DNA of 64,000 nucleotides from an uncultured Nitrososphaerota archaeon (GCA_963718895.1 CAVRAG010000008.1:1312001-1376000); one strand, 5' to 3'. Shown: positions 10,069 to 29,837, numbered from the stretch's first letter. Translations and numbers: made by a program. Notes: generated by a model not told the origin, from the sequence alone.

Positions 10069-10085
10069 ATAGAATTCGCATCAGC

Positions 10086-11629: not shown

Positions 11630-11666
11630 GTCCCGACCTAGGCGCGCACCCGAATCGCGCCAAGCG

Positions 11667-12152: not shown

Positions 12153-12255
12153 GGTTTTCGCCGCTGTCGATTGCGTGCCGCCTATTAATCATTCGGCGTG
12201 AACCGGGAGGGTCCGCGAAGCTCGGCTGCCGGGTTGGTCCTCCCGGGTCCTGGCA

Positions 12256-12588: not shown

Positions 12589-12717
12589 TCGAAACTCCAA
12601 GGGATTCCGTTCCTTCGATGGTCTTTAATGATTTTGCTTTCCTAAGGGAGCGGGAACCGATGACTAATGATAGATCTCCGCGAAATGGTATATACTGCGG
12701 AACCCGGTCGATGGTCG

Positions 12718-13197: not shown

Positions 13198-13688
13198 AGA
13201 TCGCCCTCGGTTCCGTCGTCTCTCTCTGGCTACTCTTTGGTCTGGCCACGGGCATCATACTCGCGATAATCGTCCTGGTGACCGTTCTCTTCTCTCGCGA
13301 CCTGAACAGGGGCATAACGACGACGATCAGCGAGGTCATCCTTACAGGTCTCGGGGATAGGAAAGAGTCCTTTCTTGCAAACCTCGAGAAAGAACTGAAG
13401 AGGAGAGGCCTGATCCCCCGGGTCCCCCTTGAGAAGGAGGCCGATCTCATATACAGAGATTTCTTCAATGAGGTCAGGATCTACGCAACTCAGGAAGGCA
13501 CGGCCTTGAGGTTCGGCTTCCGCACCTCCGCGACATCGAGCGCCGTCACTCTCGGTGTCATTCTCCTGATACCTTTCGTCGTCGGCTCGGTGGTGCTCTT
13601 CGCCCTGGCCATCCTGAGGCGGAACAACACCCAGACGACCCTGCGCGAGGCGGGTCAGGCCGCTGAGCTACTCACACTCGGGACCTAG
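13167..13688 (+). CDS. Hypothetical membrane protein (start uncertain)
   Basis: Two hydrophobic hairpins; reading frame open from 13149. Confidence 0.6.
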   Translation: MFTGGWFSVVEIALGSVVSLWLLFGLATGIILAIIVLVTVLFSRDLNRGITTTISEVILTGLGDRKESFLANLEKELKRRGLIPRVPLEKEADLIYRDFFNEVRIYATQEGTALRFGFRTSATSSAVTLGVILLIPFVVGSVVLFALAILRRNNTQTTLREAGQAAELLTLGT

Positions 13689-13699
13689 GCCGAGGAAGG

Positions 13700-14092
13700 T
13701 CATGTTTGGGACCTTCCGCATACGGGACAGTACGTCTTGCTGCCCTTCAGGTCCGCGCCGCAGAACTTGCAGGACCCCGGCGGCCGGGGCGGTGGCGGTG
13801 GAGGCGTCTCGTCCTCGGCTTGCTTGGGCTCCTTGGGCTCCTTCGGCCTCCCATCTCCTCCGATCAGGACCAGGAGGACGCCGATGATTATCAAGATTGA
13901 CCCCGACGCGAGGTACCAGTCGGTGTTGCTGATCTGATTCACGAGGCCGGGAATGAAAGGGAGCGCGTTGACGAGGCTGTTGAGCGCACCCAGTTCGCTC
14001 TTCATCCAGACCTGTGCTCCGGAGACGTAGCCGATCAAGTATCCACCGGCCAGACAGAGAAGTCCTCCTATCAGGTGCGACTTCCGGGACAA
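13700..14092 (-). CDS. Membrane protein with C-terminal zinc ribbon
   Basis: Two TM segments, Pro-rich linker, CKFCG...CPVCG. Confidence 0.75.
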   Translation of the reverse strand: MSRKSHLIGGLLCLAGGYLIGYVSGAQVWMKSELGALNSLVNALPFIPGLVNQISNTDWYLASGSILIIIGVLLVLIGGDGRPKEPKEPKQAEDETPPPPPPRPPGSCKFCGADLKGSKTYCPVCGRSQT

Positions 14093-14299
14093 GATGGAAC
14101 GCCCCCTCTGTAACCCTATTTAAGCCGCTGCAGGGGCTGGACCGAAGAAGCGGAGCGCCGGTCGATTGCAAATGAAGCACCCTTGGAAGCGCAGAGTTGA
14201 GGCCGGGGCCGCAGGTTCGGTGCCCAGCCAGCGGTTAGGACGCAAGATTCCGACAAAACGGCTTTTAGCACACCATGGTAACGATTCCTTCGAGAGCGA

Positions 14300-15397
14300 A
14301 TGGAGAGTCGCGCCTACTTCGGACAGAGCAATCTCGTCGGCAACGGACGAGAGTATCTCAGGGCGGTCATGAATCGGGACAGGTCGTTCGACGGCGCGTT
14401 CGTCTTCGGCGTGAGCTCGACCGGAATCTATTGCCGCCCCTCCTGCCCTGCGCGAAGACCCCGCGCGGACAGGGTGCTTCTCTTCCCGAGCCCGGACGCC
14501 GCCGAGAGCTCGGGGTTCCGCGCATGCATGAGATGCAAGCCCAAGCAGGCGTCGCAGCGCGCGGAGCTGGTCGGGCGGGTCTGCGCACACATCCAGGCCA
14601 ACCTGAACGGGGACCTTGGACTTGCGGCCCTCGGGAAGAGGTTCTCGATGAGCCCCTATCACCTGCAACGAATCTTCAGCGAGGTCGTCGGCATGTCGCC
14701 TCGAAGGTACACGGAAGAGTGCCGCATAGTCAGGCTCAAGGAGCATCTAGGCGAGGGAGAGTCCGTCACCGGCGCCCTGCGGAAGGTCGGCTACAGTTCT
14801 CAGAGCTGGCTCTATGGCGACTCCACCGCCAAGCTGGGAATGACTCCCGGCGTCTACCGGAGAGGAGGAGATGGGATGAGGATAGTCTACCACATTGGGA
14901 GCTCCCCCCTTGGCAGGATGCTGGTGGCGACCACCGAACACGGAATCTGCATGGTGGACCTAGGAGAGAGCGACGCTAATCTGGTGAAGGCCCTACACAG
15001 GGAGTATCCCAAGGCAATCGTCGCAGAATCGAAGGAAGCGCGGGAATCCTTTGACGCGGTCCTGGGATACTTCAGCGGGCACGAGACGAAGACGCCACTC
15101 GACCTCCGCGGAACCGAGTTCCAGAGAAAGGTCTGGACGGCCCTGCAGACGATCCCCGAAGGGAGCGTCTGTTCCTACAGCGACCTCGCCGCTCTGATTG
15201 GGCAGCCGAAGGCCGTGAGGGCGGTGGCGAATGCCTGCGGAGAGAATCCCGTTCCCGTCATCGTCCCCTGCCACAGGGCGGTACGCAAGGACGGCGGTCT
15301 CGGCGGCTACGGGCTCGGACTCTGGCGAAAGAGGGCGCTGCTGGCAGAGGAGAAGAATCGGACGGGCCTCGCAGCCGCGTCCGCCGAAGACGCGTAG
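14300..15397 (+). CDS. ada: Ada-type bifunctional regulator / O6-methylguanine-DNA methyltransferase
   Basis: TGIYCRPSC...FRACMRC Zn site, AraC HTH (MSPYHLQRIF), C-terminal VPCHR active site. Confidence 0.92.
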   Translation: MESRAYFGQSNLVGNGREYLRAVMNRDRSFDGAFVFGVSSTGIYCRPSCPARRPRADRVLLFPSPDAAESSGFRACMRCKPKQASQRAELVGRVCAHIQANLNGDLGLAALGKRFSMSPYHLQRIFSEVVGMSPRRYTEECRIVRLKEHLGEGESVTGALRKVGYSSQSWLYGDSTAKLGMTPGVYRRGGDGMRIVYHIGSSPLGRMLVATTEHGICMVDLGESDANLVKALHREYPKAIVAESKEARESFDAVLGYFSGHETKTPLDLRGTEFQRKVWTALQTIPEGSVCSYSDLAALIGQPKAVRAVANACGENPVPVIVPCHRAVRKDGGLGGYGLGLWRKRALLAEEKNRTGLAAASAEDA

Positions 15398-15446
15398 CAT
15401 CGCGCGTGGGCCCTTTGGTGCCGGAGGGCCCTCAAGCGGACCTCCG

Positions 15447-15866
15447 CTATCGCCTGTCCCCCACCCGCCGGACAAACTTGAGGCCTGACCATGTTTCGTC
15501 GATGGCAGCTACTTTGACATCGACCAGACGATTGCCTAGCCCTGCCTCTCTGACGGCGACATCATCAAGATCGGTCTTGACCCCCGAGGAACGCTTCGGC
15601 CAGCAGACCCAGAGCACGCCTGATCGGGCCAGTTTCCCCTCGAGCGCCGGAAACTCGTCCTCCAGTTCCTCCTTGTCTGCAACGAACAGGAGAATCAGGT
15701 CTAGGAGGTAACCTGGGAGAGCTTCAGTGACGACGATTGACGGGGAATCGTACAGTTTCTCGTCGAAACCAGAGGGCGCGTTAAGGACGGCGACCCTTGA
15801 TCCTGCCTTGACCCCGAGCTTTTCTGAAAGAGGCTTCTTGGAGTAACGTTCAGCGTCGTGGGCCAA
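15447..15866 (-). CDS. DUF3052-like protein
   Basis: YSKKPLSEKLGVK, LWVCWPK, LVDVKVAAIDETWSGLKF. Confidence 0.75.
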   Translation of the reverse strand: MAHDAERYSKKPLSEKLGVKAGSRVAVLNAPSGFDEKLYDSPSIVVTEALPGYLLDLILLFVADKEELEDEFPALEGKLARSGVLWVCWPKRSSGVKTDLDDVAVREAGLGNRLVDVKVAAIDETWSGLKFVRRVGDRR

Positions 15867-15996
15867 GAGACGTCGTTGAGAAGGGATCGATATCAGCCTA
15901 TCTCCAGGGTATTGGCCCGCGGGCCTACGCGGCTTCGCCGGGGCAGGACTAGACTTCCGCCCCGGTGTCCGGCGAACACCCGAATCTGCCCCGAGA

Positions 15997-17344
15997 CTAG
16001 CTGGACAGGGGGATTATCATTTCGGCGTAGTTGTCGCAGAGGACGAGCACTTCGTTGTCCGCGGGGTCGAAGATCGAGGCGACTGGGAAATCGCTCGTAG
16101 CGCTGGATGTGATGATGGCGAGGTGAATCGTCTGGATCAAGCTCGCGGTGCTGGACACGATGTACGCGTACTGCCCCGGGCCCGATACGTAGACATCCTG
16201 GTTCGCGGAGTCGTAGGTCAGGCACGCAACGTCATAGCATCCGCTCTGGGTACAGTCGGCGGGGAGAATCTACGCTCCCGACTACCGTGTTGGTGGAGCT
16301 GCTTATCTCGGTAACGACGTTGGGACCAGTTGTACCCGGGTCGGTCCCCACGAACACATTGTTGTTGCTGGAGTCTAAGACCAATGCCCCCCCACTCTCC
16401 GTCCCGGGAAAGCCAATCCCACTCACCACGATTTCAGAGACGACTTGGTTGGAGGTATTGATGACGTACACCTCGGCCGTCTGTACTCCTGATACGAAGG
16501 CCGTGACTGTGACGTAGACGTCCTGGTTCGCGGGGTCGTAGACGGCGTTGCCCGCCTCACCCTGGATGGTGGTGATGAGAGAGTTGGTGACTCCGTTGAT
16601 GACCGTTATCCCGTACGGGTAGGTCGAATCGATGACGTATAGGTCCTTGTTCGCAGGGTCGTAGGTGATCCACATGGGCTGTTGTCCTGAAGCTATCGTC
16701 GCGACGACACCGTTGGTCGCGCTGCTGATCACCGAGACGGTGTTAGAGTCGTAGTTCGAGGCATAGACGTCCTGGCTCGCCGGGTCGTACGCCAAAATCC
16801 AAGGCCCTGAGCCCGCGGTTACTGTTGTGACCACGCTATCAGTCGTGGGATTGACCACAGCGACATAGCCGGGGTTGGTGCAGGAGACGTAGAGGTAGCC
16901 GTTCGCGGGGTCGTAGGCGAGATACTCCGGGTCGTTGCTCCCCCCTGTGCAGACGGGGAAGGTCTTGGACCAATTAGACCCGTTGATAGCGGTCACACCC
17001 TCCAGGTTGTTGAAGTAGGGGCTGTTCGCGTCGGCGACGTACACTAGTTTGTTTGAGGGATCATACGCCGCCTGGTTGGGTTGCAAAGGCCCAACGAGGA
17101 TGGGGGCGAACTGCGAGATCGGACCGGCACTGCTGGAAGTAGAGGTTGTCGTGGTCGTGCTGGATGTCGTTGACGTAGTCGATGTCGTGGAGGAGGTCGA
17201 GGACGAACTGGAGGTTCGGCGTGCCTGCCCGATGCCTGAACCTGTCTGACCGAATGAAACCTGGGCGACAAGTATTCCGATCATCAGGACGGCAATTATC
17301 GCGGTTGAGGCGGCCATTCCCCTTCGATTCTTGTTAGCCATCAT
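15997..17344 (-). CDS. Secreted YncE/YVTN-like beta-propeller surface protein, frameshifted at ~16268
   Basis: RRG|MAASTAII signal, Ser/Thr linker, repeated AYDPAN-x-x-[LV]YV blades; repeats continue in a shifted frame (LTYDSANQDVYV...FDPADNEV) to TAG at 15997. Confidence 0.8.
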
Positions 17345-17524
17345 AACGAGCAATACGAAGGAGCCGGCCCAAATTATTTATTCTTATTTCAAGATTCGTT
17401 CCAATTTGTTATGAATGTCAGAATGGTCGGCCGCAGCAGGCTCCCTCACGGGCTCTCGCGCGTAACAATCCTCCTATCGGGTTAAGTAACATCACCTGTT
17501 TCTAAGTGGGGTGCCGGTGGGGAT

Positions 17525-19358
17525 TTGGCGAACGAGTCTGCCGAACGCACAGAGGTGCTGACAGACCAGAGGCTAGTCATGGACAGGGCTCTCCGCATCT
17601 TTTCAAACGCAAAGGAAGGGCTTGACATACTTGCGGAGACGATGGCTCCGCCGCAATCAGACCAGTCTCAAGATGTTAAGAACGCGGCCGAGGCATACTT
17701 CGACATAAAGAAGCGGGGAGGGCACCTGCGGATACTCACCAAGATTGACGAGAAGAACGTTGCGTACTGTAAGGAGCTAATGAAGAGCCTAGAACTTCGC
17801 CATTTTGACGACGTAAAGGGTAGCCTTGCCATCAGCGAGAGCGAGTACATGTCGTCCCCGGGGAGTACAACATTTCAGCCTAATGCCATGGTCACGGTCA
17901 TCTATAGCAATGCCAGACCTCTGGTCGAACAGAACAGAGTCAACTTCGAAAGGCTCTGGAATATATCTACGTCTGCAGAGGAAAGAATCAAGGAAATTGA
18001 GGAAGGGGTCATTCAGCCCAAGATTGAGATACTACGCGACCCCTACCAGATTCAAAGGCTGTATGTCGACCTGGTCAGGCAAGCCAAAGAAGAGATTCTG
18101 ATAATCTTGCCGACTTCCAACGCATTCCGTCGCGACGAGAGAGTCGGGGTGATCGAGGCCCTGCAGGCCGCTGCATCAGAACGAGGGGTAAAGGCCAGCA
18201 TAGTCGCTCCAGATTCCTTGATTGGGGAGACTCTTGGAGCGTTGAACAGAAAGATCGACGCAAAGGTCGGCGAGAAGACTGGTAAACCACAGGCGTATCC
18301 TTGAAGCCACCACTCCGAATACTGTGGCTGTCCTCGTGGTCGACAGGAATGCCTCTCTCGTCATCGAGCAGAAGGACGATTCGCAACCGGATTTTGTTAA
18401 GGCAGTAGGCGTCGCCACCTACTCGACCAGGAACTCCACTGTGCTGGCAAACATTCGGTTCTTCGAGAGGATGTGGGAGGAGGTTGAACTCAGAGAGAGG
18501 GAAGAGGTTGTCCTGGAAAGGGAGAGACGCGCCAGAAAAGCAGCGGAGCTGTTGCAGGACATCCTGGCGCACGACATCAGGAACTATAACCAGATTTCCC
18601 TGACCAACGCCGAGCTGCTCAGGGGTAACCTTGAAGGCAGCGCCGAGGTAATGAGCAAGGCCACTACGCTCATCGACTCTGTCATCGATGAAACGGGCCT
18701 GTCCAGCGAGCTCACCGCGGTGGCACAGAAGCTGGGAAGGGATCTGAGCGGGAATATCAAGGTCCTGAGCGACGCAGATGCTCTCGTCGATAGCATCATC
18801 AGCGCCATAAAAGGCTCCAGCAACCTGATCGATAGAGCGAAGAAATTGGGAAGGATAATCTCCCAAGCCGAAATCGAGCTCCATCCTGTCGACCTCGAAG
18901 AATCGCTGCAAACATCGGTGGCCCTGATAATAAAGTCCCATCCTCAAAGGTCAATAAATCTCTCCGCCTCTGTGAAGTCGGGGGCACGTGTGCTCGCGGA
19001 CAACCTGTTGGAGGAAGCGTTCACGAACATACTGTCCAACTCGGTCAACTACACCGAGACGGATGAGGTCCCCGTTGAGGTCCAAGTGGAAGAAACCGAA
19101 GAAGCGATCCTTGATGCAAAAGGGGCGCCCTGCTGGAGGATTACGTTCACAGACCACGGAAGGGGCATACCGGACAAGGTTAAGGATAAGATATTCACGC
19201 GCTATCTTAACACCGCAACTGGAGCGGGCCTCGGGCTCTCGATAGTCTACGCGCTCGTAGTGGACAGGTATTCTGGGAAGGTGGCGATCACGGACAGGGT
19301 GAAAGGAGACTTCACGAAAGGGACGAAGGTGGAAGTGTGGTTACCGAAGGCGTCTTGA
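17525..19358 (+). CDS. Sensor histidine kinase (Nitrososphaera-like), frameshifted at ~18246-18279
   Basis: H-box AHDIRN, N-box NILSNS, DHGRGI, GAGLGL; VVDRNASLVIEQKDDS sensor motif; shifted frame LVNHRRILEATTPNTVAV links the two ORFs. Confidence 0.85.
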
Positions 19359-19435
19359 CCGTTCGACAGGTCTACCTGTCGAGTTTCGTCACCTCGACAA
19401 GGTCGGCCGGAGATTCTTCGGGAGAATCGAATCTG

Positions 19436-19849
19436 ATGGGACTGAACACCCATCCTTCGAACGACCAACAGGAGATAGGCGAGCAGAGCGTCAAGAGCAT
19501 AGCGATAGTCGATGATGAGGAGGAGCTGTGCTCGCTGCTAGCAATGTTGGTCAAGAGCCTAGGATACCACGCGGCGTGTGTTGCCTTTGACGGGGATGAG
19601 ATTGTTCAGCTTGTGCTGGATGATAGCATCCATCCGGATCTGATACTCATGGACTACCGCATGCCTACGATGAACGGCATGCAGGCGGCTGAAAGGATTC
19701 TGCGCGCCAAGCCCGAGATGAAGATAATCATCGCCACAGCCGACGACTCGGTCAGACAAGATGCGACTTCTGCAGGACTCTTCTTCATACAGAAGCCTTT
19801 CTCGACATCGGCGCTCGCCAAGACTATAGAAGAGGCACTAGGCGATTGA
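19436..19849 (+). CDS. Single-domain response regulator (REC)
   Basis: IVDDEE, DLILMDYRMPTMNG, IIIATA, QKPF. Confidence 0.92.
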   Translation: MGLNTHPSNDQQEIGEQSVKSIAIVDDEEELCSLLAMLVKSLGYHAACVAFDGDEIVQLVLDDSIHPDLILMDYRMPTMNGMQAAERILRAKPEMKIIIATADDSVRQDATSAGLFFIQKPFSTSALAKTIEEALGD

Positions 19850-20109
19850 TAGTGAACTGACTTGACATTGGAAAACGGCTCGTTAGGATCCCGTCCTGAT
19901 CTTCCAGCAGGGATGGACAAGGAAGTTTTGCAAGAAGATTAGCCCCCCAGAAGACATGGCTCGGCAGTCGGCCGCGGTTGAACCGATGCTCCTGGCACCA
20001 TTTCGGTTGAACTTGAAGCTTGGCCGCTGCTTGAAAAGCACTGGCAATCTACGCTTCCAGTTGCCGGCAAGCTGCCTCATCTTTATAATTGAACAAGCAT
20101 ATCATTTTG

Positions 20110-20577
20110 GTGAGGAACACGGCCAAGTCACAGTCACCCAAGCCTAATCCCGCACTCAAGCCTCTTGAGGTCCTTGTTGGAGATTGGGACATGGAGTTGT
20201 CAGAAGCTTCATTTCTTCCAGGCCCACGATCCAAAGTGCATGGTCCCGCATCTCTCAAGTGGATTGAGAACGGTGCGTTTCTGGTCATGTATCAAGGGGA
20301 GAAGCAAGCTCCGCAGGCGATATGGCTGATGAGCCGTGACGAATCAACCGCGCCATTCAAAGTCCTCTACTTTGATGCCCGAAGGGTCTCAAGAGTATAT
20401 GAGATGAGCTTCAACAACGGCGTCTGGAAGATGTGGCGGAATGCTCCAGGTTTCTCACAACGCTTCAAGGGTGTTCTCGGGAAGAGCGGCAATACAATAG
20501 TCGCGGAGTGGGAAAAGTCAAATGACGGACGGAAATGGGAACACGACTTCAACGTAAGGTACACCAAAAGAGAATAG
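20110..20577 (+). CDS. Conserved hypothetical beta-barrel protein (DUF1579-like)
   Basis: LKPLEVLVGDW, YFDARRVSRVY, WEKSNDGRKWEHDF; start uncertain. Confidence 0.65.
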   Translation: MRNTAKSQSPKPNPALKPLEVLVGDWDMELSEASFLPGPRSKVHGPASLKWIENGAFLVMYQGEKQAPQAIWLMSRDESTAPFKVLYFDARRVSRVYEMSFNNGVWKMWRNAPGFSQRFKGVLGKSGNTIVAEWEKSNDGRKWEHDFNVRYTKRE

Positions 20578-20658
20578 ACATCAGTTTCACAGAACCATCC
20601 TGGCCAGATTTTAAGTTGGAGTGGAGACTTAAGTAGCCAACTCCGTTCAAATGCACGC

Positions 20659-21360
20659 TTGACAAGATTCGTACTAGTTCCAGGAGCTTGGCTGGGGGCT
20701 TGGGCCTGGAAGGAAGTGACTCCAATTCTCGAGAAGAAGGGCGACCAGGCCTACCCAGTCACATTGACTGGAATGGGCGAAAGGGTTCATCTTGCCACAT
20801 ATGATGTTGGCATGGAGACCGCAATCCAGGATGTCCTTAATGTAATCAAGTACAACAATCTCGACGATTTTGTACTGTTGGGGCACAGTTTCGCCGGTAA
20901 GGTGGCGGCTGCAGTGGCAGACCGCGCCCACGATAAAGTACAGAAGGTCATCTATGTCGATGCATTCCGGCCGGAGATCGTGAAGGACCCCCAGGGTGGA
21001 TTCGACCCGACCCGTGAGTTCGGGCCCCCGCCTCAAGGTGGCAATGGGATTCCCCTCACCGAGAAGATCGTAGACCGCATTGGGAAGGACGTTGTAGGCT
21101 CGAAGCGGAAATGGATGATGTCATTGGCGACACCCTGGCCAATCAAACTTGCGAAAGACCCAATCACTCTGTCAGAGAACTATGACCCGAGGAAGGAAGC
21201 GTATGTCTTTTGCAATCTAAGCGGCGACCCAGTGGACGAAATCATCTCCGGGAAGTGGGGAAAGCTCAATGGTCCATACAAGGTCATAGAGGCGGGCCAT
21301 TGGCCGATGATTACGAAACCTGAGGAGCTGGCAGAGGATCTTGTGTCCTTAGCCAACTGA
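20659..21360 (+). CDS. Alpha/beta hydrolase (esterase)
   Basis: VLVPGAWLGAWAW, GHSFAG nucleophile elbow, GHWPM. Confidence 0.9.
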   Translation: MTRFVLVPGAWLGAWAWKEVTPILEKKGDQAYPVTLTGMGERVHLATYDVGMETAIQDVLNVIKYNNLDDFVLLGHSFAGKVAAAVADRAHDKVQKVIYVDAFRPEIVKDPQGGFDPTREFGPPPQGGNGIPLTEKIVDRIGKDVVGSKRKWMMSLATPWPIKLAKDPITLSENYDPRKEAYVFCNLSGDPVDEIISGKWGKLNGPYKVIEAGHWPMITKPEELAEDLVSLAN

Positions 21361-21421
21361 CGCGCTCCCGAAGCCCACGCGACGAAATTGCCAGAGCGCT
21401 CAGATTCAGGCTAGTTTGTAT

Positions 21422-21437
21422 GGTGCGGGGGGTGAGA
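21422..21437 (-). repeat. att repeat: copy of the tRNA-Leu 3' end
   Basis: GGTGCGGGGGGTGAGA vs GGTGCGGGGGGTGGGA (28125-28140), 15/16 identical. Confidence 0.7.
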
Positions 21438-22287
21438 ATTTATCCCTTCGGGTTCGAATCGGCATCCGGCCTTGACTGTCACAACCTCGAAGCAGCGTGA
21501 GCATCTCTAAACGACCGCAAAAATGCATATTCTGAGGCGGTCGGAATAGTTGCTCGACTCCAATTCATTAAGACAGCCCACTTTTGTCACTAACCGTCGT
21601 GTCCGCATACATTTCAGTAATGTCGCCCTTCGGTAATGAAGTTCAGTTAGCAGGTCCCAGAGTATATTGCGGTGAATGTTTGGTCGCTTTGAGTTGCTGT
21701 GACCGTCCTCTCAGGATTAGTACTTCCTGTATCTTGCCATTTCTCGAAGGTACAAGAGCCATAGTTATGCGAGTCCACAGTGTAGCTATAGCCTGAAGTA
21801 AGGCCAGTGAAGGTCACTGGCGTATATCCTGATTGTACTACGACCCCACCATAGTAAAGAGTGGTGTAGTATCCTGTGATCGGGTCGCCGCTCGTATTTA
21901 CCGAATTTACTGTGATGCCCGAACAATCGTATACTGCAGTATACAGCTGTGGGTCTTCAGTTGCTACAACCGTGAGTGGATTGCTTGCACTTCCACCAAC
22001 CCAGTTTTCGAAAACACAACTTCCGTAATTGTCAGCTTGGAGTGTGTATATGTTCAAACCCGTGACGAAGAATTGCGGTGTGAATCCAGTTGATACTATG
22101 GTCCCACTCTGGCGGAGAACGACATAATATCCCGTAATTGGAGTCCCAGCCACATTCTGGGAGTTCACTAGAATATTCGAGTACGAAAAGAGTTGATACT
22201 GCTTACCTGAAGCTGCGTAAAGAGGTGAGTACCCCATGTTAGAGGCTTCACCTGTAGATACTCCGTTATAGCAAGTGGATGATCCTC

Positions 22288-23323
22288 AGGTGTGTCGAAT
22301 AACTAACTCCTCTGTCAACCTTCTTTCATTCGTTCCCTGATGGGATTGAGAAGATCTCGCTCTCTCGTGCCCGAGAAGAAGAAGCGGAACTGGAAGGAGT
22401 ACAACGAGTCGCTGGTGAGGAGGGGAGAACTCCTCTTCGATACCGATTTTTTATCTGGTTGGAGCAGAGAACTAGAGAGTCTCAACGAGGAGAAGGAAGG
22501 AGCGAGGTATCGCTATCCAGACTCGTTAATGAGTATGCTCGCAGCCATCCACGTGTACCTGCTCCCGTACAGGGAGCTGGAAGGGTTCCTCAGGATGTTC
22601 TCGGGGCACGTAGAAGGGTTGAGAGTCCCAGACTACACCACGATGTGGTGGAGGATATCAAGGGTGAAGGTGGAGCTCGACCCAAGTGTGGATCCAAAGG
22701 AAGACGTGACCATAGCGGTTGACTCGACTGGCATCAAGGTCTCCAACCACGGGGACTGGATGAGGCACGTCTGGAAGGTGAAGCGGCCCTTCATCAAGGT
22801 ACATCTCGCAGTGGACGTCAGGACCGGGAAGATACTGTCGATGGAGGTGACGAAGGAAGAGGTAAGAGACGCAGAGATGCTCGTCCCGCTGGTCGAGCGA
22901 GCGTCCTCGAGCGCGAAGGTGGCGAGGCTGATGGGCGACGGGGGATACGATTCGAGAGCCAACTTCAGGTACCTCCACGATAACGGGATTGAGCCCGTCA
23001 TCAAGGTAAGGAAAAATGCCTCGTCGCACGCACACGGGTGCATGCCGAGGAAGCTCGTCGCGATGGAGCAGCTGAGAGACTACGAGAGATGGAAGACGAG
23101 GCACGGGTACGGCCAGAGAGCGAGGGTCGAGTCGGCGATATCGTCGTTCAAGAGGACGTTCGGGGAGCACGTAACCTCGGTGAGGTGGAGGAGCGTGGTC
23201 AACGAGCTGCTCGTCAAGGCGTCGGTCTACAACCTGTTCGTCGGGAAGAACCTGTAGCAATGGCTAGGAGTCGGCGAAACCACGAGCAAGAAGTGACGCA
23301 CCGTCAAGTTATTCGACACACCT
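22288..23323 (+). mobile_element. IS5-family insertion sequence
   Basis: Perfect 17-bp TIRs AGGTGTGTCGAATAACT (22288-22304, 23307-23323); target duplication ATGATCCTC / ATGATC(A)CTC. Confidence 0.93.
22340..23257 (+). CDS. IS5-family DDE transposase (IS903-like group)
   Basis: NWKEYNESLVRRG, VPDYTT, AVDSTG, GDGGYD, YGQRARVESAISSFK. Confidence 0.95.
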   Translation: MGLRRSRSLVPEKKKRNWKEYNESLVRRGELLFDTDFLSGWSRELESLNEEKEGARYRYPDSLMSMLAAIHVYLLPYRELEGFLRMFSGHVEGLRVPDYTTMWWRISRVKVELDPSVDPKEDVTIAVDSTGIKVSNHGDWMRHVWKVKRPFIKVHLAVDVRTGKILSMEVTKEEVRDAEMLVPLVERASSSAKVARLMGDGGYDSRANFRYLHDNGIEPVIKVRKNASSHAHGCMPRKLVAMEQLRDYERWKTRHGYGQRARVESAISSFKRTFGEHVTSVRWRSVVNELLVKASVYNLFVGKNL

Positions 23324-24070
23324 ATGATCACTCCCAAAGCATATTGAGTGATGGAGTATCCACTAGGATAGGTAAACTCACCGTTACCTCCGATAAAAGT
23401 CACATTGGAATCACCCGACCCGACCAATGCCGCAGCTTTAGTGGCATATTGGAATACCTGGGCTACAATCGCGTTTGTTTGTGACACTAGCTGTTCATAG
23501 TTTCCGCCGGTAAGAATTGGCACATATTTTGCATATACGGAGTCATTATCGGCATAATTGGCGTTGCTGGTATAAATGAAGTACTTGGCTCCTATGGCCT
23601 GATTTTCCGCGTTCAGTACCACTTGTATCCTATTCACGTATCCACCGAGACCGATGTAATAGTCCACGTTCGCTTGAGCATTATCGTAAAAGTGGTTATA
23701 TGGAATCTGAAGGTCTATGCCGGTCTGACTGCCATTATCAGTGGGGTGCATTACGAACTGATACCAGTCATAGTAAGAAGCGGTCGATGCTGTACCAGCG
23801 TTAAGCTGCCATCCCCAACTATCAGCATTCGCATAGCCTGTGTACTGCGCGTAACTTTCAGACAGTATGGTCTGATTTACGAACATTGTTACGGTTGGGT
23901 CAATCGGAGGGCAAGTAGAATTGGCAGCCATGACCAGGGTATCGCCTCCCTTGTACGGGCCTAGGTAAGACGCGCCGGCACTAGACAGTCCACCAAGACC
24001 TGTTAGAATAAGAAGAATCATTGCCAAAGCCGAATAAATTCCGCGGCATGTAATCATTTTCAAGAACCTT

Positions 24071-24934
24071 CTAAGCTGGATTAATCGTCTCACAGATGAT
24101 CGAACTCTCGAATGAGAAAGTTAATCCGGCTTGGGGTAGAGCATCAGGAAGAGCCGTATACGAGCCAGATGCCTCGTAAGTGTTAGGGAGCTGAAACGAA
24201 GACTGTCCGTAAGCCGGGCCAGTTCCCATCGATCGATCTGAAGCCGACCAACCGCTCACCCATAGTGAATGATCCGCGATAAAGGCCACCGAGAAAAGGC
24301 TGTCTTGGGACATGGTCAAATTGTATCCGAGAGCACTGAATCCCGCAATCATCGTATGGTTAGATATCGCGATTATCTGATTGGCGGTTCCATTTGGATC
24401 CTTAGTAAGAGACGTACAATCGTTTGGCTGGCAAAGGTCAGGCAGATTCTCGCTAGTGCTCGTCAATCGGTCATGGTTTGAATCGTAAAGCCCAAGCGTC
24501 AGATTTATGTTGCTGTCATCGGCGAAAACGTAGAAATTAAATTCTCCTGAAATGTAGTTGGAGATGCTCTCCGGATAGACGAAATTGACCCATACTAGCG
24601 TATTTGCCGGAACTAACATACCTGAGGGGCCATTTCCTCCGTTGCCAAACGTAACAACCGCGTGCTCATATTCCGTAGTGGTACTTAGACTGGTCGAAAA
24701 GATGGAAGTTGTAGTAGTAGTTGTAGGGCTTGTTGATGTAATGGAAGTAGACCCAGAGGACGTCGACAGTGTTTGACCCGAAGTCGCCGCGGGACTATTG
24801 GTAGCGACGAAGAATGCGCCTGCTCCCACAGATGCAATGACCAGAATGGAAACAAAAGCGACTGCGGCAGAGATAGCCGCACGACTCGACCTGTACCTGA
24901 TCGAATGCTTCTTGTCGCGCATCTGATGAGCCAA
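24071..24934 (-). CDS. Secreted/surface protein with class III-like signal peptide and Ser/Thr linker
   Basis: RSSRAA|ISAAVAFVSILVIA, STSPTTTTTTS linker, many N-x-S/T sequons. Confidence 0.7.
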   Translation of the reverse strand: MAHQMRDKKHSIRYRSSRAAISAAVAFVSILVIASVGAGAFFVATNSPAATSGQTLSTSSGSTSITSTSPTTTTTTSIFSTSLSTTTEYEHAVVTFGNGGNGPSGMLVPANTLVWVNFVYPESISNYISGEFNFYVFADDSNINLTLGLYDSNHDRLTSTSENLPDLCQPNDCTSLTKDPNGTANQIIAISNHTMIAGFSALGYNLTMSQDSLFSVAFIADHSLWVSGWSASDRSMGTGPAYGQSSFQLPNTYEASGSYTALPDALPQAGLTFSFESSIICETINPA

Positions 24935-25167
24935 TATCCTCCATTATCCTAATTCTTAGCGGTCAGACATGGTCTTAAGCTCTACGCAGTGATGTTATGT
25001 ATCGTAGTTACATGATACGCCTTTCTGGTCAAGGCCGCCAAACATGTAGAGAGAAGTACTGCTTATCCAACGCCCTATAGCATGTTGCAGCTATGGCGAT
25101 TGATACGAGTATGGCATGTTTCGTGGCTAGCATTGGTCAACTTTTGCGTAAAGGGATGATAGAGCGA

Positions 25168-25391
25168 ACCGCTCTCGATAGTAGAGTTCTCACTCTCGCT
25201 CGCTACGGCGGAATTCACCCCCTGCCCCCTCTTCCGCCTCCGCTCGTTCGACCCTCCGCTAGCGCTCCGGGGTTCGCCCTCCTACCGTCGGGCTCCGTGA
25301 GCCCTCTACTATCGAAGCGGTGAGGGCACTTACGTTCCCTCCCCGACCCTACGGGTCGGCTCCCCTCCCTCCTTCAGGGGGCGTGAGGGGG
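25168..25391. other. Highly structured non-coding segment (candidate origin of transfer/replication)
   Basis: ACCGCT(C)TCGATAGTAGAG 25168-25186 pairs with 25304-25321; further hairpins GAGGG..CCCTC and CCGACCC-TAC-GGGTCGG. Confidence 0.5.
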
Positions 25392-26876
25392 CTCGGCTTT
25401 GCTCTCGTTTGCTGCGGCTCCTGCTGCTCCAATGGCTTCCTTTAGCTCCGGCAGGGTTGCTATCTTGACTCTCTCCGCGGCGTAGCGCGAGTATCTCCCC
25501 GCTTCCTCGTAGTTCGGCGCCAGGATCGATCATCCGCTTGGCGCTCTTGGAAAGGCGCTCCTGCAAGTCCGCTTTTGAGTGCTTCAAGCCCGTCTCTATC
25601 TCTAAGTCGAACTCTGGCGTCTCTATGTCTGGAACCGACCCGTCGCCTGTGGAATTCGTCTTCGATACGGTCACACCGCTAGCCGTGAGTATGCTCACCG
25701 CCTCCTTCTGCATGTAGTCGTGGATGGGAGAGAGGTTCGGGTCCCTGACATAGTAGAGAACCTTTCCCTTTCCCATCGAGTCGAGGTATCGTATGCGCCC
25801 TATCCCCGTCTGGTGGAGCGGTTCCTTCCTCAGGATATTCAGTATCTCGTTCTCGTAGTCTGTGGTATCGGCCCTCTTCGGCTGGAGGGGAGCGACATTG
25901 GCGGGCTCGTCGTACTGCACCTGCCGCTCTGGAAGCTCGGCCCTGTCCGCCCTGAAGATGGGGACTATGCCACCGTTCCCCACCCGAAAGGTGAGGTCGA
26001 TGAACTGATGCGGTCGAAGCTCCTTCACTATCCAGACGTAGGCGGAATCAATCTTACGTATCGCCTCCAGATCCATCTCTGACGTAGTGTTGAAAGTGAG
26101 TTGGGTAGCGAACTGGTTCCTTAGCGCGCGTCTGGGATATCCGAATAGTTCTGTGTAGCTGTGTAGAGAGCACCGAACTGCCTCACCTGCCTCATCAACG
26201 TGTCAACGATCGTCCTCGCCTCAGTCTCGTAGAGCTGGGTCAGCCTGTGAACCTCGTCTATCACGATGATGGTCTTCTTCTGCTTCTCTTGGACGCTAAT
26301 GCTACTGGTGAGTGAGCTCCATATCTGCCTGAGCGCAATCTCTGCGTAGAACGTCTTCGCGCTCTCGTCGAGATGAGAGAAGTCGAGGACGGCGTCCGTG
26401 GCGAGGTCTACGCTGAAGGAACCTTCCCCAACGACTAGACCCCCAATCTGAGCCTCTATCAGCGCCAGCGCCTCCTTCTGTATGTCCGTGCCCTTCCTCT
26501 CGGCGTGCTTGAGGTTGTCCCTGAACTCGCTCCAGTTCTTACTTTGGCGAGCGGTGCTCTTGACTAACGCCCGGACCTGCGAGAATGTGATTCCTCTTAC
26601 GTTCGCGGGGAAGGCGAGAGCGTTTGCTATCGCGAACGCATCAGCATCCTGGAACGGGTCGGGTATGTGTCTTGAGACGTCTACCACCTGGCACGGCATC
26701 CGAAGGTAAGCGTCGTTTGGCTTGAACGAGAAGACGGTCTTCGGTTCCTTCGCCGAGAGCAGGAGGACGTTCATCAGCTCGCTCTTGTCCATTCCAGAGC
26801 GGCCGCAGATCATCACGGACGGGTTCCCCTTCCGTCCAATGTATTCGTCAAAGTTCACGTAGCAGATTCTTGCCAT
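25374..26876 (-). pseudogene. HerA/VirB4-like P-loop ATPase fused to a PD-(D/E)xK-like domain; degenerate
   Basis: Walker A GRSGMDKS (G to D), Walker B IIVIDEVH, RQVRQFG, ATQNYSDI; frameshifts at ~26125 (restores DALRNQFATQ) and ~25525; C-terminal HDYM..VPDI..LEIETG. Confidence 0.75.
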
Positions 26877-26878
26877 AA

Positions 26879-28069
26879 TCAAGAGGTTGGAGCGCCAGAT
26901 AGGTACTTCTCGACGACCTTCCTGAGCCTGGCTAGCTCTTCCCTTGTGCTTTCGTCCTCGACCTGCATCCTGCTCCTTGCACCTTCATCGAGGGGAGAGG
27001 CGCACCGTGGACAGTAGACCATGCCTCTGGATGCCTTCTCGTTGCAGCGCGGGCAGATAATCGGTGCAAACTCTGGCTTGGTCGGTTCCACCTTCTCACC
27101 CGAATATAGGGCAGTTAGCTTGTCATCCAGGTCTCTCCCCGAAAGGTGGACGTAGACGGCGGGCATCTTGCTACTCATAGACCATCCATACATCAGCTTG
27201 AGTTCAGAATCCGTGAGGAACTTCGCGTTTCTGGTCGCCGAGCCGTGTCTCAGCATGTGGTTGAAGACCCTCTTCTTCACTCCCGCACGTAGCGCTAGCT
27301 GCTTCAGGCAGCGGTTCCACCTGACCCAGCTTAGCCGTTGGTTCTTGTAGTTTGTGCTCTCCGTGAGCCATAATGGAGAGGAAGGCTCGTTCCTGAACGG
27401 GTGAACCTCCAGGTATCGAGCGAGCAGGCTCACAGAGGTTATCAGCCTCACGACCCTGCTTCCTGTCTTCCCCCTCTCGATGTGAAGCCTCGCCCCTCTA
27501 TCGTCAAAGACGACGCTCCCGATGTTGAGGGTGAGCAACTCGGTAGCTCTCAGCCCTGCCTCGTAGCCGACTGCCAACATAGCCTTGTCCCTCAGACTGG
27601 TCGCCGCCTTGATCATGACCTCGATTTCCTCGCTGGTGAAGAAGAGAGGCTCCTTGCGCTCGTTCGCCTTTATGGCGGTCTTGATCCATCTTACCTCCTC
27701 TGGGTAGGGCGTCTCTCTGTCCACGTTCCCAGTTCTTGCGAACTTGAAGAACCTCTTCACAGCAAAGAGATAGTCCGAAATCGTGTGCGGCGTATAGCCG
27801 GAGTCGCTCTGCAACCATGCGACTAGTCCCTCGATGTCTCCCCTCTTTGCTTGCTGGGTGCTTGTCCCGAGGCGTTCGATTGCGTTCTTCAGGTGATAGG
27901 TGTACTTGGCAAGCCTTCCAGTGGATACGCCCTGAGCCTTCAGATGTTGAACGAACCTGCGAATCACCTCCTTGTCCTCATTGCAGATTCGCGCTGATTC
28001 GTCCAGGCGCTTCTGAGCGTTCGCGAGTCGCGATTCGTAATCATACACCTCCTCGATTACGTCCTTCAT
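26879..28069 (-). CDS. Tyrosine recombinase/integrase with C-terminal zinc ribbon
   Basis: GLRATE (R), GKTG (K), HMLRH, YGW, VYVH (Y); CPRC..CPRC tail; start inferred at MKDVIEEVYDY. Confidence 0.95.
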   Translation of the reverse strand: MKDVIEEVYDYESRLANAQKRLDESARICNEDKEVIRRFVQHLKAQGVSTGRLAKYTYHLKNAIERLGTSTQQAKRGDIEGLVAWLQSDSGYTPHTISDYLFAVKRFFKFARTGNVDRETPYPEEVRWIKTAIKANERKEPLFFTSEEIEVMIKAATSLRDKAMLAVGYEAGLRATELLTLNIGSVVFDDRGARLHIERGKTGSRVVRLITSVSLLARYLEVHPFRNEPSSPLWLTESTNYKNQRLSWVRWNRCLKQLALRAGVKKRVFNHMLRHGSATRNAKFLTDSELKLMYGWSMSSKMPAVYVHLSGRDLDDKLTALYSGEKVEPTKPEFAPIICPRCNEKASRGMVYCPRCASPLDEGARSRMQVEDESTREELARLRKVVEKYLSGAPTS

Positions 28070-28126
28070 GCCATACCGGAGAACGTCTGCTTTTAACGGA
28101 GAGAGATTTGCACTCATGGCGTAAGG

Positions 28127-28211
28127 TGCGGGGGGTGGGATTCGAACCCACGAACCCCTAAGGGATTGGAGCCTCAGTCCAACGCCGTTGGCCATGCTGG
28201 GCGACCCCCGC
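28127..28211 (-). tRNA. tRNA-Leu(GAG), intronless
   Basis: GCGGGGG acceptor, TTGGA-CTGAGGC-TCCAA anticodon arm, long variable arm, GTGGG-TTCGAAT-CCCAC. Confidence 0.95.
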
Positions 28212-28380
28212 ACAAGCGCCGCCTTGCTAGCCGCGCTTCTAAAACTCTTCCGAGTCGCTGTCCTCGTTCATCCGACGTGAGCAGGGGCCCGGGCCGAACG
28301 TGCCCCTGTCAGGACACCCCCGGTCGCAACTTGAAAGCGGTCATATCTTAAATGCGTGTCAAAACGAGCGGAGGGGACGT

Positions 28381-28491
28381 GCCGGCGTAGCTCAGACATC
28401 CTAAGAGATGGAGAAGTCTGGCAGAGCACTCCAATAGGGGCTCAGACGCCTCGTAAGCGTGCGGCCGTGGGTTCAACTCCCACCGCCGGCT
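28381..28491 (+). tRNA. tRNA-Thr(CGT) with two non-canonical introns (28396-28416, 28430-28445)
   Basis: Spliced GCCGGCG-TA-GCTC-AGTCTGGCA-GAGC-A-CACGC-CTCGTAA-GCGTG-CGGCC-GTGGG-TTCAACT-CCCAC-CGCCGGC-T; BHB motifs at both introns. Confidence 0.9.
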
Positions 28492-28494
28492 CAT

Positions 28495-29837
28495 TCAATT
28501 TCTACATCCGCAGTTTTTTTGGCGCGACTTCGTGCCATTTAGTACCTCTAACAATATGGTACTAATCACGCCATTGAAATCAAGGAAAGAGATGATTGCG
28601 TAGCCACAAGTTACGCTACTATTCCATCGAAAATCCTGTCTCAACTTCTTGGCAAGGTCAAGAAGCTCGGACAATGCTAAGCTCGAAATCTTCTCTATTC
28701 CGTGTCGAAATCATTCGTGCCTGTATCGAGGTTCTATTGTCGAGCGTGTATAGATTCCTTGCCACCTTTCGAAGGTTCCTCAATAACCAGGTTTCGCAAA
28801 CCCAGGCATTTCACTCCACATAGATATGCTATCTCTGAGCCAATTCTTCCTTGATCATAGATGGAACCCATTTTAAGCATCGTCCGTTCAAGCGTTCTCT
28901 TGACTTTGATGTCATCGATTATCAACGCTTTTGAGTACACTCCTTGCACTAGGTTTAGGTATCTCCCGGAATAATTTCTGGTCTGACCTATTCCATACAC
29001 TTCCTCGGAAGGGGGTCGGATATAGCATGTCGACATTGCCCCTTGTCGTCCATAACGAAATGTGAGCCTAAATCCGTCAAAGGATATCAGATTCACGCTT
29101 TCACACCCGGCACCCCTGTCAATTTGAAACTGCGGCAGCTTCAACCCATCATGACGGATTCTCAGCTTCCACTTTCTGCCGATGTAATCGACGAGACTAA
29201 ACTGAAGGTAGACACCCTTATTCTGGTTACTCGGTCCGGGGTATCTATCCACAGAACCTCTCACAACGAAATCCGCGACATCAACAAGAGGATGATCCTG
29301 AACGAATTCAATTTGTAACTCACCATCATCATGAGCTGATACAGATTTGGCCACCACTCTATCAGCTACCCATCTCGTGAAATCTAGATTTGCAAGTTCG
29401 AAGCTTGGAATACCAGCAATGAACGACTTAAGCGGCAGAAGTTCGAGGGATATCCTCGCTTGCTGTCCTGGACTTAGACGATTCCTCGAGAGCACCGGTC
29501 TGAACTCACGACCTCCTCTGTACAAATGATAACTGGAGAAGGAGCCGTCTTGGAGGTATGTAGTAATCTTGAAGGCGAGTATCTGATTTGACGGTGTGAC
29601 GATATGGTCCACACTCTCTGATTTGAAGTAAAGGCCAAGTTCTTGCGCTGAAATGTAGGTTCTGCCATCACGGCCTATTCTTATGGACTTGCATTTCGCA
29701 TAGGTGCTATCATCTTGGGATCCAGTCTCGCCTTGAGCCAGAAAATGAGACTCTACAGGAGGTTCTGGAGCAGTCGGAACCGGGGCATGTATTCCATTCT
29801 TAAGTGCCTCAGGTATGAGCGAAGAATCTTCGTTCAT
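28495..29837 (-). CDS. Low-GC hypothetical protein with C-terminal restriction-endonuclease-like motif; two frameshifts (~28755, ~28675)
   Basis: Reconstructed GRIGSEIA...GGKDLYTLDNRTSIQAR...KKLRQDF...GYAIISF. Confidence 0.5.

Follow-up and report, generated by a model that had tools for sequence, protein, structure and literature searches.

A probable decayed copy of a small tRNA-Leu-integrated element family in Nitrososphaerota

Cryptic integrated elements (CIEs) of Thaumarchaeota range from 2.6 to 98 kb and, as far as the available text of Krupovic et al. 2019 (PMC6563490) goes, have no discernible signature genes that are specific to them. Here we describe a 6.7-kb element beside a tRNA-Leu(GAG) gene in a 64,000-nucleotide (nt) stretch of DNA from an uncultured Nitrososphaerota archaeon (GCA_963718895.1 CAVRAG010000008.1:1312001-1376000), which is referred to as the window. 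The class to which it belongs, the cryptic integrated element in a thaumarchaeal tRNA gene, is already known from that article in the part available. Like the CIEs covered there, the element is small, features direct repeats in a tRNA gene and an integrase that is left intact on integration, lacks recognisable virion or mating-pore genes and carries surface-protein cargo. Unlike them, its family has three signatures, namely a Topo mini-A protein, a membrane HerA/VirB4-like ATPase and an inverted-repeat block, and has none of the MCM, primpol, RCRE, Orc1 and PolB proteins that the same text lists. The region from 21422 to 28124 is very probably a defective copy, with an internal deletion, of an element from a Nitrososphaerota family of small (~7-8 kb) site-specific integrative elements. 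The window copy itself is an ordinary decay relic, not a minimal autonomous design.

In actinomycete integrative-conjugative elements (ICEs) and Streptomyces plasmids, a single membrane-anchored FtsK-like protein with a winged helix, TraB, acts on clt. By analogy, the present family may be compared with TraB/clt elements, as a small tRNA-integrating element with a single motor that has a winged helix and with a repeat-containing cis site at the motor gene's 3' end or behind it. It differs from them in an ATPase that is closer to HerA/VirB4 than to FtsK and has a nuclease-like tail, in the use of mini-A rather than Rep/primase, and in its archaeal host. To our knowledge, the biology of archaeal conjugation and plasmids outside Sulfolobales and haloarchaea is almost unknown. 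The available text of PMC9905601 states that no relaxase has been found in archaea. Thaumarchaeal and Sulfolobus ICEs share with the present family tRNA-gene integration and an ATPase of the VirB4/HerA clade, but according to the available text of PMC6563490 they carry a VirB4/TrbE and VirD4/TraG pair together with VirB6, VirB3, TadC and pilins, where one ATPase is found here in 7-8 kb. The thaumarchaeal ICE gene set is not present in the window element: no VirB4 plus VirD4 pair, VirB6, VirB3, TadC or pilin gene was found among its seven open reading frames (ORFs) or among those of L008, an intact relative described below, and each of the two elements has a single ATPase gene.

Mini-A proteins are type IIB topoisomerase A-like proteins of ~300 aa with no B subunit, for which Takahashi et al. 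2019 (PMC7671362, available text) gave an RxxY/FY box (catalytic tyrosine), a DxDxxG box (Toprim) and a WELDAL-type box at the C-terminus. In the part of an Asgard virus preprint that is available (10.1101/2021.07.29.453957), it was proposed that mini-A may initiate rolling-circle replication, and mini-A homologues were reported in ammonia-oxidising Thaumarchaeota. The relatives of the window element encode a 320-aa protein with RxxYY, DxDxxG and WELDA boxes, as do mini-A viruses and mobile genetic elements (MGEs). In the available text of these two sources, however, the mini-A genes reside in viruses or unassigned MGEs, with no description of elements in which mini-A is paired with a tRNA-Leu integrase and a HerA-like ATPase of the membrane. 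From the window copy, mini-A has been lost. For the ATPase, the nearest description is arCOG00280, a HerA-like helicase of archaeal 'dark matter islands' for which Makarova et al. 2014 (PMC4158269, available text) gave, as a possibility, the annotation of viral DNA-pumping ATPase. The two are alike, when compared by description, as HerA-like ATPases common in archaeal integrated elements, but that text as available gives neither an architecture of transmembrane helices, winged helix and nuclease nor an element family. No description of an element with an integrase, mini-A and a membrane HerA-like ATPase was found in the literature searched, which excluded subscription journals and supplements; members may be among the entries of the PMC6563490 and PMC7671362 supplementary tables. 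The 7-8 kb family with its three-part signature therefore appears to be undescribed within that literature.

Site of integration and outline of the element

Recombination by the tyrosine integrase brought the element into the 3' end of tRNA-Leu(GAG), regenerated the end of the tRNA and left a 13-nt core repeat (Table 1). The final 13 nt of the tRNA have exactly two exact occurrences in the window, and these bracket 6.7 kb, as a preliminary description of this DNA had noted. When up to two mismatches are allowed, 6 matches are found where 2.84 would be expected, a count that is reached in 7 of 100 shuffles, so that the relaxed match count is by itself unconvincing. The distal copy is judged to be real because of its neighbour: the 26-nt arm that adjoins it recurs, with at most three mismatches, at the far end of related elements in six other distinct loci (L007, L008, L051 (= L089), L052, L053 and L088). 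The arm region also matches a second locus of the same genome over 38 nt at 94.7%. GC content is 47-48% over 21500-22500 and 23500-25000, compared with 54-58% over the integrase and ATPase genes, and an Rfam scan of 21000-28500 found that only the tRNA reaches the gathering score.

Table 1. Features of the tRNA-Leu(GAG) element, listed from the tRNA gene to the distal end (positions are those of the window)
Feature	Position	Strand	Details
tRNA-Leu(GAG)	28125-28211	-	ARAGORN; Rfam tRNA 49.8 bits
Proximal attachment (att) core, attR	28125-28137		last 13 nt of tRNA-Leu(GAG)
Tyrosine integrase, 412 aa, intact	26879-28117	-	PF00589 61.1 bits, cut-off 27.1
Deletion junction	26861-26866		integrase 3' flank joins ATPase codon ~105 at short shared TGCT-type microhomology
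HerA/VirB4-like ATPase remnant	25374-26882	-	two ORFs, 26121-26882 and 25330-26076; one P-loop gene
Conserved structured non-coding block	25166-25345	-	inverted-repeat arms 25175-25193 and 25297-25315
Gene for 287-aa protein, N-terminal membrane anchor and Ser/Thr-rich linker	24071-24934	-	no Pfam family
5' half of secreted-protein gene split by insertion sequence (IS)	23324-24093	-	signal-peptide-like N-terminus; 288-aa ORF 23227-24093
IS5-family element, 1036 bp	22288-23323	+	transposase gene 22340-23257; 16-nt terminal inverted repeats; 8-bp target duplication
3' half of IS-split secreted-protein gene	21647-22287	-	196-aa ORF 21647-22237, no signal peptide of its own
attL element-side arm	21435-21460		conserved 26-nt motif; recurs in related elements
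Distal att core, attL	21422-21434		exact copy of the final 13 nt of tRNA-Leu(GAG)

The integrase is full length, with 84-90% identity to four relatives and 73% identity to a fifth. Its PF00589 match covers residues 160-326 and phrog_1 is matched at E 1.1e-25. The residues R190, H287, R290 and Y322, which we take to be the catalytic R...HxxR...Y residues of a tyrosine recombinase, are invariant in 6 of 6 aligned integrases, the window copy included. The start codon (28117) lies 8 nt past the 3' end of the tRNA, and the att core is outside the gene, which is unsplit; the integrase is of the type that stays intact on integration (pNOB8 type), not of the SSV type.

One of the relatives provides an empty site, for which the preliminary description had suggested a search. 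In G010, tRNA-Leu(GAG) lies ~130 bp from the homologue of an Ada/MGMT gene that ends at 15397 in the window, with nothing inserted between them. Measured against this site the window carries 12.7 kb of inserted DNA instead of 6.7 kb, and no third att copy is found near 15400. Extra DNA beyond the element is found at the same place in other relatives, with ~2 kb in G001/L051, 5.6 kb in G002, 6.5 kb in G005 and 11 kb in G007. The 3' side of tRNA-Leu(GAG) is considered a hotspot because relatives carry 0.13-11 kb of different DNA there, and the 6.7-kb element is the tRNA-proximal, better-defined part of it. The ~6 kb between the Ada/MGMT gene and attL (15400-21421), which are absent from the empty site of G010, encode a secreted beta-propeller protein with a Ser/Thr-rich linker, a histidine kinase/response regulator pair and an alpha/beta hydrolase. 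The left-flank gene (20659-21360) has homologues in eight relatives, none of them with a tRNA within 1.5 kb; synteny of the left flank is uninformative because this flank belongs to the variable region.

Intact relatives and the deletion in the window copy

Relatives of the ATPase were collected in three scans: one genome per species gave 12 loci, the taxonomic family of the window gave the ATPase in 16 of 97 genomes (9 of 22 within the genus), and metagenomes gave 7 further loci. Duplicate loci were counted once (L095 = L010, L091 = L009, L089 = L051 and L058 = L008). Four intact relatives of the window element, termed type 1, were identified (L008, L051, L088 and L107) along with a degenerate fifth, L103, and they are 7.1-8 kb in size where both ends are seen. 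The order tRNA-Leu, integrase, 320-aa gene and ATPase is common to all five (L051 with its duplicate L089), and all five carry, in this order, the integrase, mini-A on the opposite strand, a 642-aa ATPase, a block of ~150 nt and variable cargo, which takes up 2.5-3.7 kb in the intact relatives. The elements occupy three isoacceptor genes, tRNA-Leu(TAG) in L008 and L107, tRNA-Leu(GAG) in L051/L089 and tRNA-Leu(CAG) in L088. The 7.08-kb element of L051/L089 shares its 7-nt chromosomal flank with the window; L088 comes from a one-contig genome. The proposal that the locus is a tRNA-targeted integrated element is thereby upheld, as the arrangement of integrase, ATPase, hairpin block and att sites recurs with different cargo. 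The host settings of the family are tRNA-Leu genes of soil and peat Nitrososphaerota.

The reference among these relatives is L008, a contig of a Nitrososphaerota metagenome-assembled genome with an intact element beside tRNA-Leu(TAG) (7521-7607). Its integrase (7615-8850) has 85% nucleotide identity to that of the window and is followed by the 320-aa gene on the opposite strand (8963-9925) and by the 642-aa ATPase gene (10001-11929). After the ATPase come the non-coding block and 3.4 kb of cargo that is unrelated to the cargo of the window. The far end, 15517-15556, is 95% identical to window 21423-21462, and the outer flanks are syntenic with the tRNA-Leu(TAG) locus of the window genome itself. 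At that locus in the window genome, L007 (G000:C8:398000-416000), a 2.7-kb remnant (8249-10976) lies beside tRNA-Leu(TAG) and ends in a window-type attL arm; it has only two secreted-protein genes (254 and 383 aa), with no integrase or ATPase.

The 320-aa protein (P0151) matches PHROG 6247, annotated as 'DNA topoisomerase', over nearly its whole length (E 1.4e-73). Its RxxYY, DxDxxG and WELDA-type C-terminal boxes match the mini-A boxes given in the available text of PMC7671362, and on these sequence features the protein is assigned as a Topo mini-A (Topo VI-A-like). A PDB sequence search with P0151 gave nothing below E 0.66. Among mini-A homologues of at least 58% identity in the genus, all 5 of 5 loci in the family scan adjoin the ATPase; more distant mini-A genes in other genera are not beside it. 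In the genome of the window, mini-A was not found in a search with a P0151-type query.

The preliminary description was correct that an intact tyrosine integrase ends 2 nt before an ATG that opens the ATPase frame, and that arrangement is present as read. It had further proposed that these two genes form a core that defines a family, which does not hold, as 5 of 5 close relatives with the region assembled have mini-A and the full ATPase 5' end between the two. The segment 8868-10315 of L008, 1.45 kb that comprise mini-A and the ATPase 5' end, is without counterpart in the window. In the junction alignment the window follows the 3' flank of the integrase and then switches to about codon 105 of the ATPase. 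The ATG found 2 nt past the integrase stop belongs to the integrase flank, and L008 and L051 have it as well. That integrase and ATPase adjoin in the window is the product of one 1.45-kb microhomology deletion. As an alternative, the preliminary description had considered a deleted relic of a large conjugative element; it is a relic in kind, but its parent is a 7-8 kb element. An independent deletion derivative is seen in L106 (G004:C115), at 3648-5251 beside tRNA-Leu(TAG), where integrase residues 1-337 are fused to ATPase residues 459-627.

The ATPase of the window has further damage. It begins at about residue 105, and the first ~105 codons with the membrane helices are gone. The P-loop reads G-M-D-K-S, where D replaces G131, a residue that is invariant in 34 of 34 family members, and an intact P-loop is consequently missing from the window's own ATPase. 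A 90-bp (30-codon) in-frame deletion at ~25798 lies inside the winged helix, and the missing segment is kept in L008, L051, L088 and L052. The assembly also has two frame changes, +2 nt in a CG run near 26128 and +1 nt at 25527. Base calls were compared with short-read contigs from four Logan metagenome runs that were mapped to 20800-28700; these runs hold 25% or less of the sampled words, may include the sample of origin, and serve as independent evidence for base calls only. The base at 25527 is absent from a 193-nt X1 contig that is otherwise identical and from a 151-nt X3 contig with one other difference. Since both contigs are without the extra base, the 25527 frameshift is probably an assembly error, and without it the ATPase frame runs on continuously. 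The preliminary description had reported the Walker A G-to-D change and two frameshifts; the first stands, and both frameshifts are in the assembly, the one at 25527 with this reservation. It had missed the 5' truncation, the 90-bp in-frame deletion, the IS5-family element described below and the 12.7-kb size of the insertion relative to the empty site. The 5' truncation, the G-to-D change and the 90-bp deletion are not attributed to assembly because they are not the type of change that such errors make. A third frameshift, considered in the ATPase tail, was rejected, as L051 ends at the same ...HAP stop as the window.

ATPase family, non-coding block and cargo

A search of 1.84 billion representatives, with the better-preserved second ATPase copy of the same genome as query, identified 153 proteins at E <=1e-3, most of them 580-720 aa in length. 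One member, P0001 (642 aa, 88% identity), is intact. In an alignment of 34 full-length members the Walker A residues G126, G131 and K132 are invariant, as are the Walker B residue E308 and Q342, and D307 of Walker B is nearly invariant. The AlphaFold model of the intact ATPase (pLDDT 85.2) begins with two N-terminal (membrane) helices, after which come a small beta domain, the P-loop domain, a winged helix and, last, a small alpha/beta tail. The motor domain was matched by Foldseek to HerA (4d2i, E 5e-11) and also to HerA-NurA, DndH and Sir2-HerA, to VirB4 (4ag5/4ag6) with a TM score of 0.59-0.62 normalised to the target, and to TrwB (1gl7) with a TM score of 0.52. A profile search of PDB sequences returned TdpA, YjgR, STIV B204, HerA and VirB4 at E 1e-10 to 1e-7. 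The Walker motifs and the modelled motor fold place the family in the HerA/VirB4 clade of the FtsK/HerA superfamily, and the earlier designation of the protein as a HerA/VirB4-like ATPase is borne out by the family motifs and by these matches. No curated family of Pfam or NCBIfam is reached: the NCBIfam models for VirB4, TraC, CedB and antiphage HerA score 18-29 bits against cut-offs of 325-800, and in Pfam AAA_10 reaches at most 25.9 (27.5 required), HerA_C at most 19.2 (22 required) and DUF87 23.2 (23.2 required) in 1 of 10 proteins.

Structure comparison of the winged helix gave Z scores of 9-10 and a root-mean-square deviation (rmsd) of ~2 angstroms over 57-63 residues. In the C-terminal tail, D109, E118, E120 and K124 are invariant in 19 of 19 domains, and the window ATPase carries the PDIET...EIETGLK motif. 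The order of secondary structure in the tail model (alpha-beta-beta-beta-alpha-beta) fits a PD-(D/E)xK core. The top Foldseek match of the tail is FokI, which is weak (E 3.6e-4, rmsd 14), the VIA structure lists were filled by the winged helix, and an Atlas language-model search led to PD-(D/E)xK families, all below 0.9. No nuclease family was matched by the tail in Pfam or among PDB sequences. The C-terminal PDI..EIETG nuclease-like domain of the preliminary description is therefore secure as a motif and plausible as a nuclease.

The hairpin-rich non-coding DNA noted earlier is a real feature. Between the window ATPase and the next cargo gene there are ~440 nt of non-coding DNA, and the block in it has 19-nt arms that flank 103 purine-rich nt. 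Directly behind the ATPase stop, ~170 nt are conserved at 89% mean column identity across six type-1 elements, compared with ~85% for the neighbouring genes, and the conservation does not extend past the second arm of an inverted repeat whose 19-24-nt arms enclose 99-104 nt. The block of L008 has two compensatory pair changes. The second type of element, described below, has a different block, a 20-24-nt inverted repeat that encloses 151-197 nt and whose arms co-vary between loci; in L006, four 12-nt direct repeats at distances of 21-25 nt lie inside the inverted repeat. Within 650 nt downstream of the ATPase, 10 of 25 loci have an inverted repeat of 17 or more matched pairs, compared with 0 of 100 random windows from the same loci, and the 15 loci without it are mostly distant relatives. 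The block matches no Rfam family. The arms co-vary in a way that is compatible with a hairpin or cruciform and also with paired sites for protein binding. The block accompanies the ATPase in both types of element, whether or not mini-A is there, and we infer from this that it is the ATPase's own cis site.

Association with integrases holds for much of the wider ATPase family. In 16 of 22 assessable ATPase loci a tyrosine-integrase homologue of either type lies 0-6.2 kb away, and in 13 of these 16 a tRNA is found within ~0.7 kb of the integrase; six loci have no integrase detectable with the queries used, and four more are cut by contig ends. The second type (type 2) is exemplified by the other ATPase copy of the window genome, L006 (G000:C8:974000-993999). 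This copy, which is split across frames in the assembly, is downstream of tRNA-Ile(GAT), behind a very divergent integrase-like gene, a wHTH (winged helix-turn-helix) gene and a small nuclease-like gene. The type-2 integrase-like protein has weak matches to PHROG integrases (E 7e-8 to 1.5e-4) and no match in Pfam, NCBIfam or PDB sequences. There is no similarity between the two integrase types, nor between mini-A and the wHTH protein of L006. The type-2 arrangement recurs in L009, L010, L090, L094, L096, L100 and L104. The integrase of L006 (12367-13655) consists of 317-aa and 112-aa ORFs, where L010 and other loci have a single 429-aa ORF; the split could be a real break or an assembly indel. 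The tRNA-Ile 3' end is repeated in L006 at 1662 (100%), 6180 (87%) and 13706, which suggests that 1662-13720 holds two elements in tandem. The inner segment of L006 (1824-6022) has ABC-transporter genes and is 89.7% identical to L047 7238-11449 beside tRNA-Leu(GAG) of G005; this cassette moves between tRNA sites, given that it is shared by the tRNA-Ile context of L006 and the tRNA-Leu(GAG) context of G005.

The same ATPase is also found in plasmid-like elements of Thermoplasmata, Micrarchaeota and Nanoarchaeota. In the Thermoplasmata/Micrarchaeota loci L013-L016 and L018 it occurs with genes for small membrane proteins, a ParA-type ATPase, a resolvase and an AAA+ protein, with a type III restriction-modification pair in addition in L015 and L016. 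Three of these loci carry the type-2 integrase, which in L015 is next to tRNA-Ala, and the five loci look like integrative plasmids. On a Micrarchaeota contig, L012, three genes for 535-580-aa proteins lie behind the ATPase (11685-16671); one of the proteins has DUF2341, and their N-termini, judged by eye, resemble archaeal class III (pilin-type) signal peptides.

The cargo between the block and attL is different in each of the five type-1 elements compared. Secreted or membrane proteins are encoded in three of the five (window, L051 and L052), so the surface-protein cargo of the preliminary description is present and is not universal. One protein of the L052 cargo has a divergent InlB B-repeat domain, L008 carries zinc-ribbon proteins and a ParE/RelE pair, and the genes of L088 are likewise not of the secreted or membrane type. 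In the window two low-GC secreted-protein genes are found, as described earlier, and one of them is interrupted by the IS. The 287-aa protein has a weak homologue in the type-2 element L010 (E 2e-7, partly in low-complexity sequence), and repeats of the 196-aa ORF align to the C-terminal part of a 373-aa protein of L010 (E 3e-11); the weak homologues of both window proteins are side by side there. Neither window protein belongs to a PHROG or Pfam family. When the IS and one copy of the target site are removed in a script, the 288-aa and 196-aa ORFs become a single open frame of 475 codons.

The IS belongs to the IS5 family, with a transposase that scores 99.5 bits for DDE_Tnp_1 and 249.4 bits for NF033579 (cut-off 140), and a 100% identical copy is present on contig 7 of the same genome (C7:641653-642688). 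A 151-nt X4 contig is without one base at 23330, and the target duplication is a perfect 8 bp once this extra base is removed. One X1 contig joins 22284 to 23331, which is the IS-free allele; this allele is therefore present in at least one sampled population.

Proposed mechanism and alternative explanations

The window copy has an intact integrase, both att sites and an intact block, and for this reason it might still excise. It would be unable to replicate or to move alone, and the possible helpers in its genome amount to no mini-A that could be found and no ATPase that is demonstrably intact. For intact members of the family the following mechanism is put forward tentatively, as the likeliest working model though at somewhat less than even odds, and by analogy with known systems. 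The integrase would handle integration and excision, and mini-A would nick and initiate replication of the excised circle. The membrane ATPase would recognise the inverted-repeat block through its winged helix and pump DNA through the membrane or along it, in transfer from cell to cell or in partition, and the nuclease-like tail may cut at the block. The more far-reaching idea, that the intact relatives are an undescribed class of small self-sufficient archaeal elements in which replication through a mini-A nickase is combined with a single membrane HerA/VirB4-type motor that would move or partition the double-stranded DNA and would recognise, and possibly cleave, an inverted-repeat site of its own, is unlikely on present evidence.

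Several observations weigh against the reading of the locus as a decayed copy of such a mobile family, or limit what can be built on it. The Logan contigs of the four runs list no joint at the circular junction 21437/28124, and no read or contig, here contigs of the four runs only, shows an empty site in the source population. Many loose contig ends are found at 28125/28126, and they were assigned to other tRNA-Leu contexts because their sequences are mixed. Terminal overlaps are present in 0 of 10 small contigs that carry the ATPase, and no episomal form was seen among them. No listed Logan contig of the four runs spans the frameshift near 26128 or the deletion junction. Two spurious single-base insertions are found in the covered parts of 7.9 kb of the assembly (20800-28700). 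Elsewhere in this genome, which is 80.5% complete though in just 11 contigs, 5 of 27 syntenic reference proteins from relatives match in more than one frame, one of the five being doubtful since a single frame suffices there for two other references. Because of such indel errors in the assembly the frameshifts are not countable as decay, and nowhere in this genome should a frameshift be taken for the mark of a pseudogene unless reads support it. The nuclease-like character of the ATPase tail depends on a motif, a topology and weak leads, the similarity of the ATPase domain extends to HerA proteins of defence systems and to packaging ATPases of viruses, and the transfer mechanism is an analogy.

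Of the other explanations for the locus, the one given in the preliminary description takes integrase and ATPase for a minimal core, kept by selection, of a mobilisable satellite that depends on a helper and shuttles surface-protein genes. The intact integrase, att sites and conserved block agree with it, as do the second integrase-ATPase derivative in L106, the secreted-protein cargo in three of five type-1 regions and the homologues of the window secreted proteins in L010, an element that integrated differently. However, the ATG of the ATPase is a fortuitous codon of the integrase 3' flank that L008 and L051 also have, the truncated ATPase is without membrane helices and, judging from its sequence, has a dead Walker A motif, and no helper is evident, as mini-A was not found in the window's genome and the second ATPase copy there is broken up over several frames of the assembly. 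The breakpoints of the window and L106 differ, which argues for decay rather than a conserved design, and a selected core is improbable.

The locus may also be considered as the provirus of a small membrane-containing (pleomorphic or spindle-like) archaeal virus, in which the ATPase would package DNA and the secreted, membrane-anchored proteins would form the envelope. This is consistent with the viruses in which mini-A was mainly reported (PMC7671362 and 10.1101/2021.07.29.453957, available text), with profile matches at E 1.2e-9 to B204, the packaging ATPase of STIV, and at E 4.8e-8 to a terminase family of PHROG, and with the membrane-anchored Ser/Thr-rich proteins that go with several elements. 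We nevertheless regard a provirus as a poor prospect. Searches of IMG/VR with P0001 and with an alignment (A3) found no relatives, neither a capsid nor another virion hallmark was found, and the secreted proteins that would serve as envelope have no PHROG or Pfam family, though virion proteins of an unfamiliar kind may be present. The cargo is not conserved among the five type-1 elements, and the ATPase, at 640 aa with a winged helix and a nuclease-like tail, differs from the matched B204 chains of ~210 aa.

That the ATPase-nuclease is a defence or exclusion module of the HerA-plus-nuclease type, which rides on integrative elements and takes no part in their transfer or replication, appears very unlikely. 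TdpA, Sir2-HerA, DUF4297-HerA and DndH are included among its PDB profile and fold matches, PADLOC mad8 is matched at E 4e-12 together with weak HerA model matches, and restriction-modification genes lie near ATPase loci of Thermoplasmata and Nanoarchaeota. All defence-family scores are far below membership level, however, and the ATPase is predicted to have N-terminal membrane helices. No other gene is linked so constantly to the integrase; its position is fixed and a conserved cis block is dedicated to it, while the cargo varies. A chance repeat around ordinary chromosomal genes, with which the non-significant relaxed 13-mer count would agree, is refuted by the attL arm in six other loci, by the presence of the element in three tRNA-Leu genes and by the empty site in one relative, and it can be set aside.

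The reading of the window element as a decayed member of a small integrative family thus leads from a relic to a compact recurrent module, which consists of an integrase, mini-A and a membrane ATPase with its cis block. The window copy also serves as a warning, in that the apparent minimal core and at least one frameshift stem from a deletion and from assembly error. Through the intact relatives, mini-A and a large uncharacterised HerA-like family (153 representative clusters) gain a concrete genetic context. If the intact relatives do prove to be self-sufficient elements with a single motor, they would be an archaeal equivalent of DNA transfer by one TraB-like protein and would for the first time place mini-A in a functional context.

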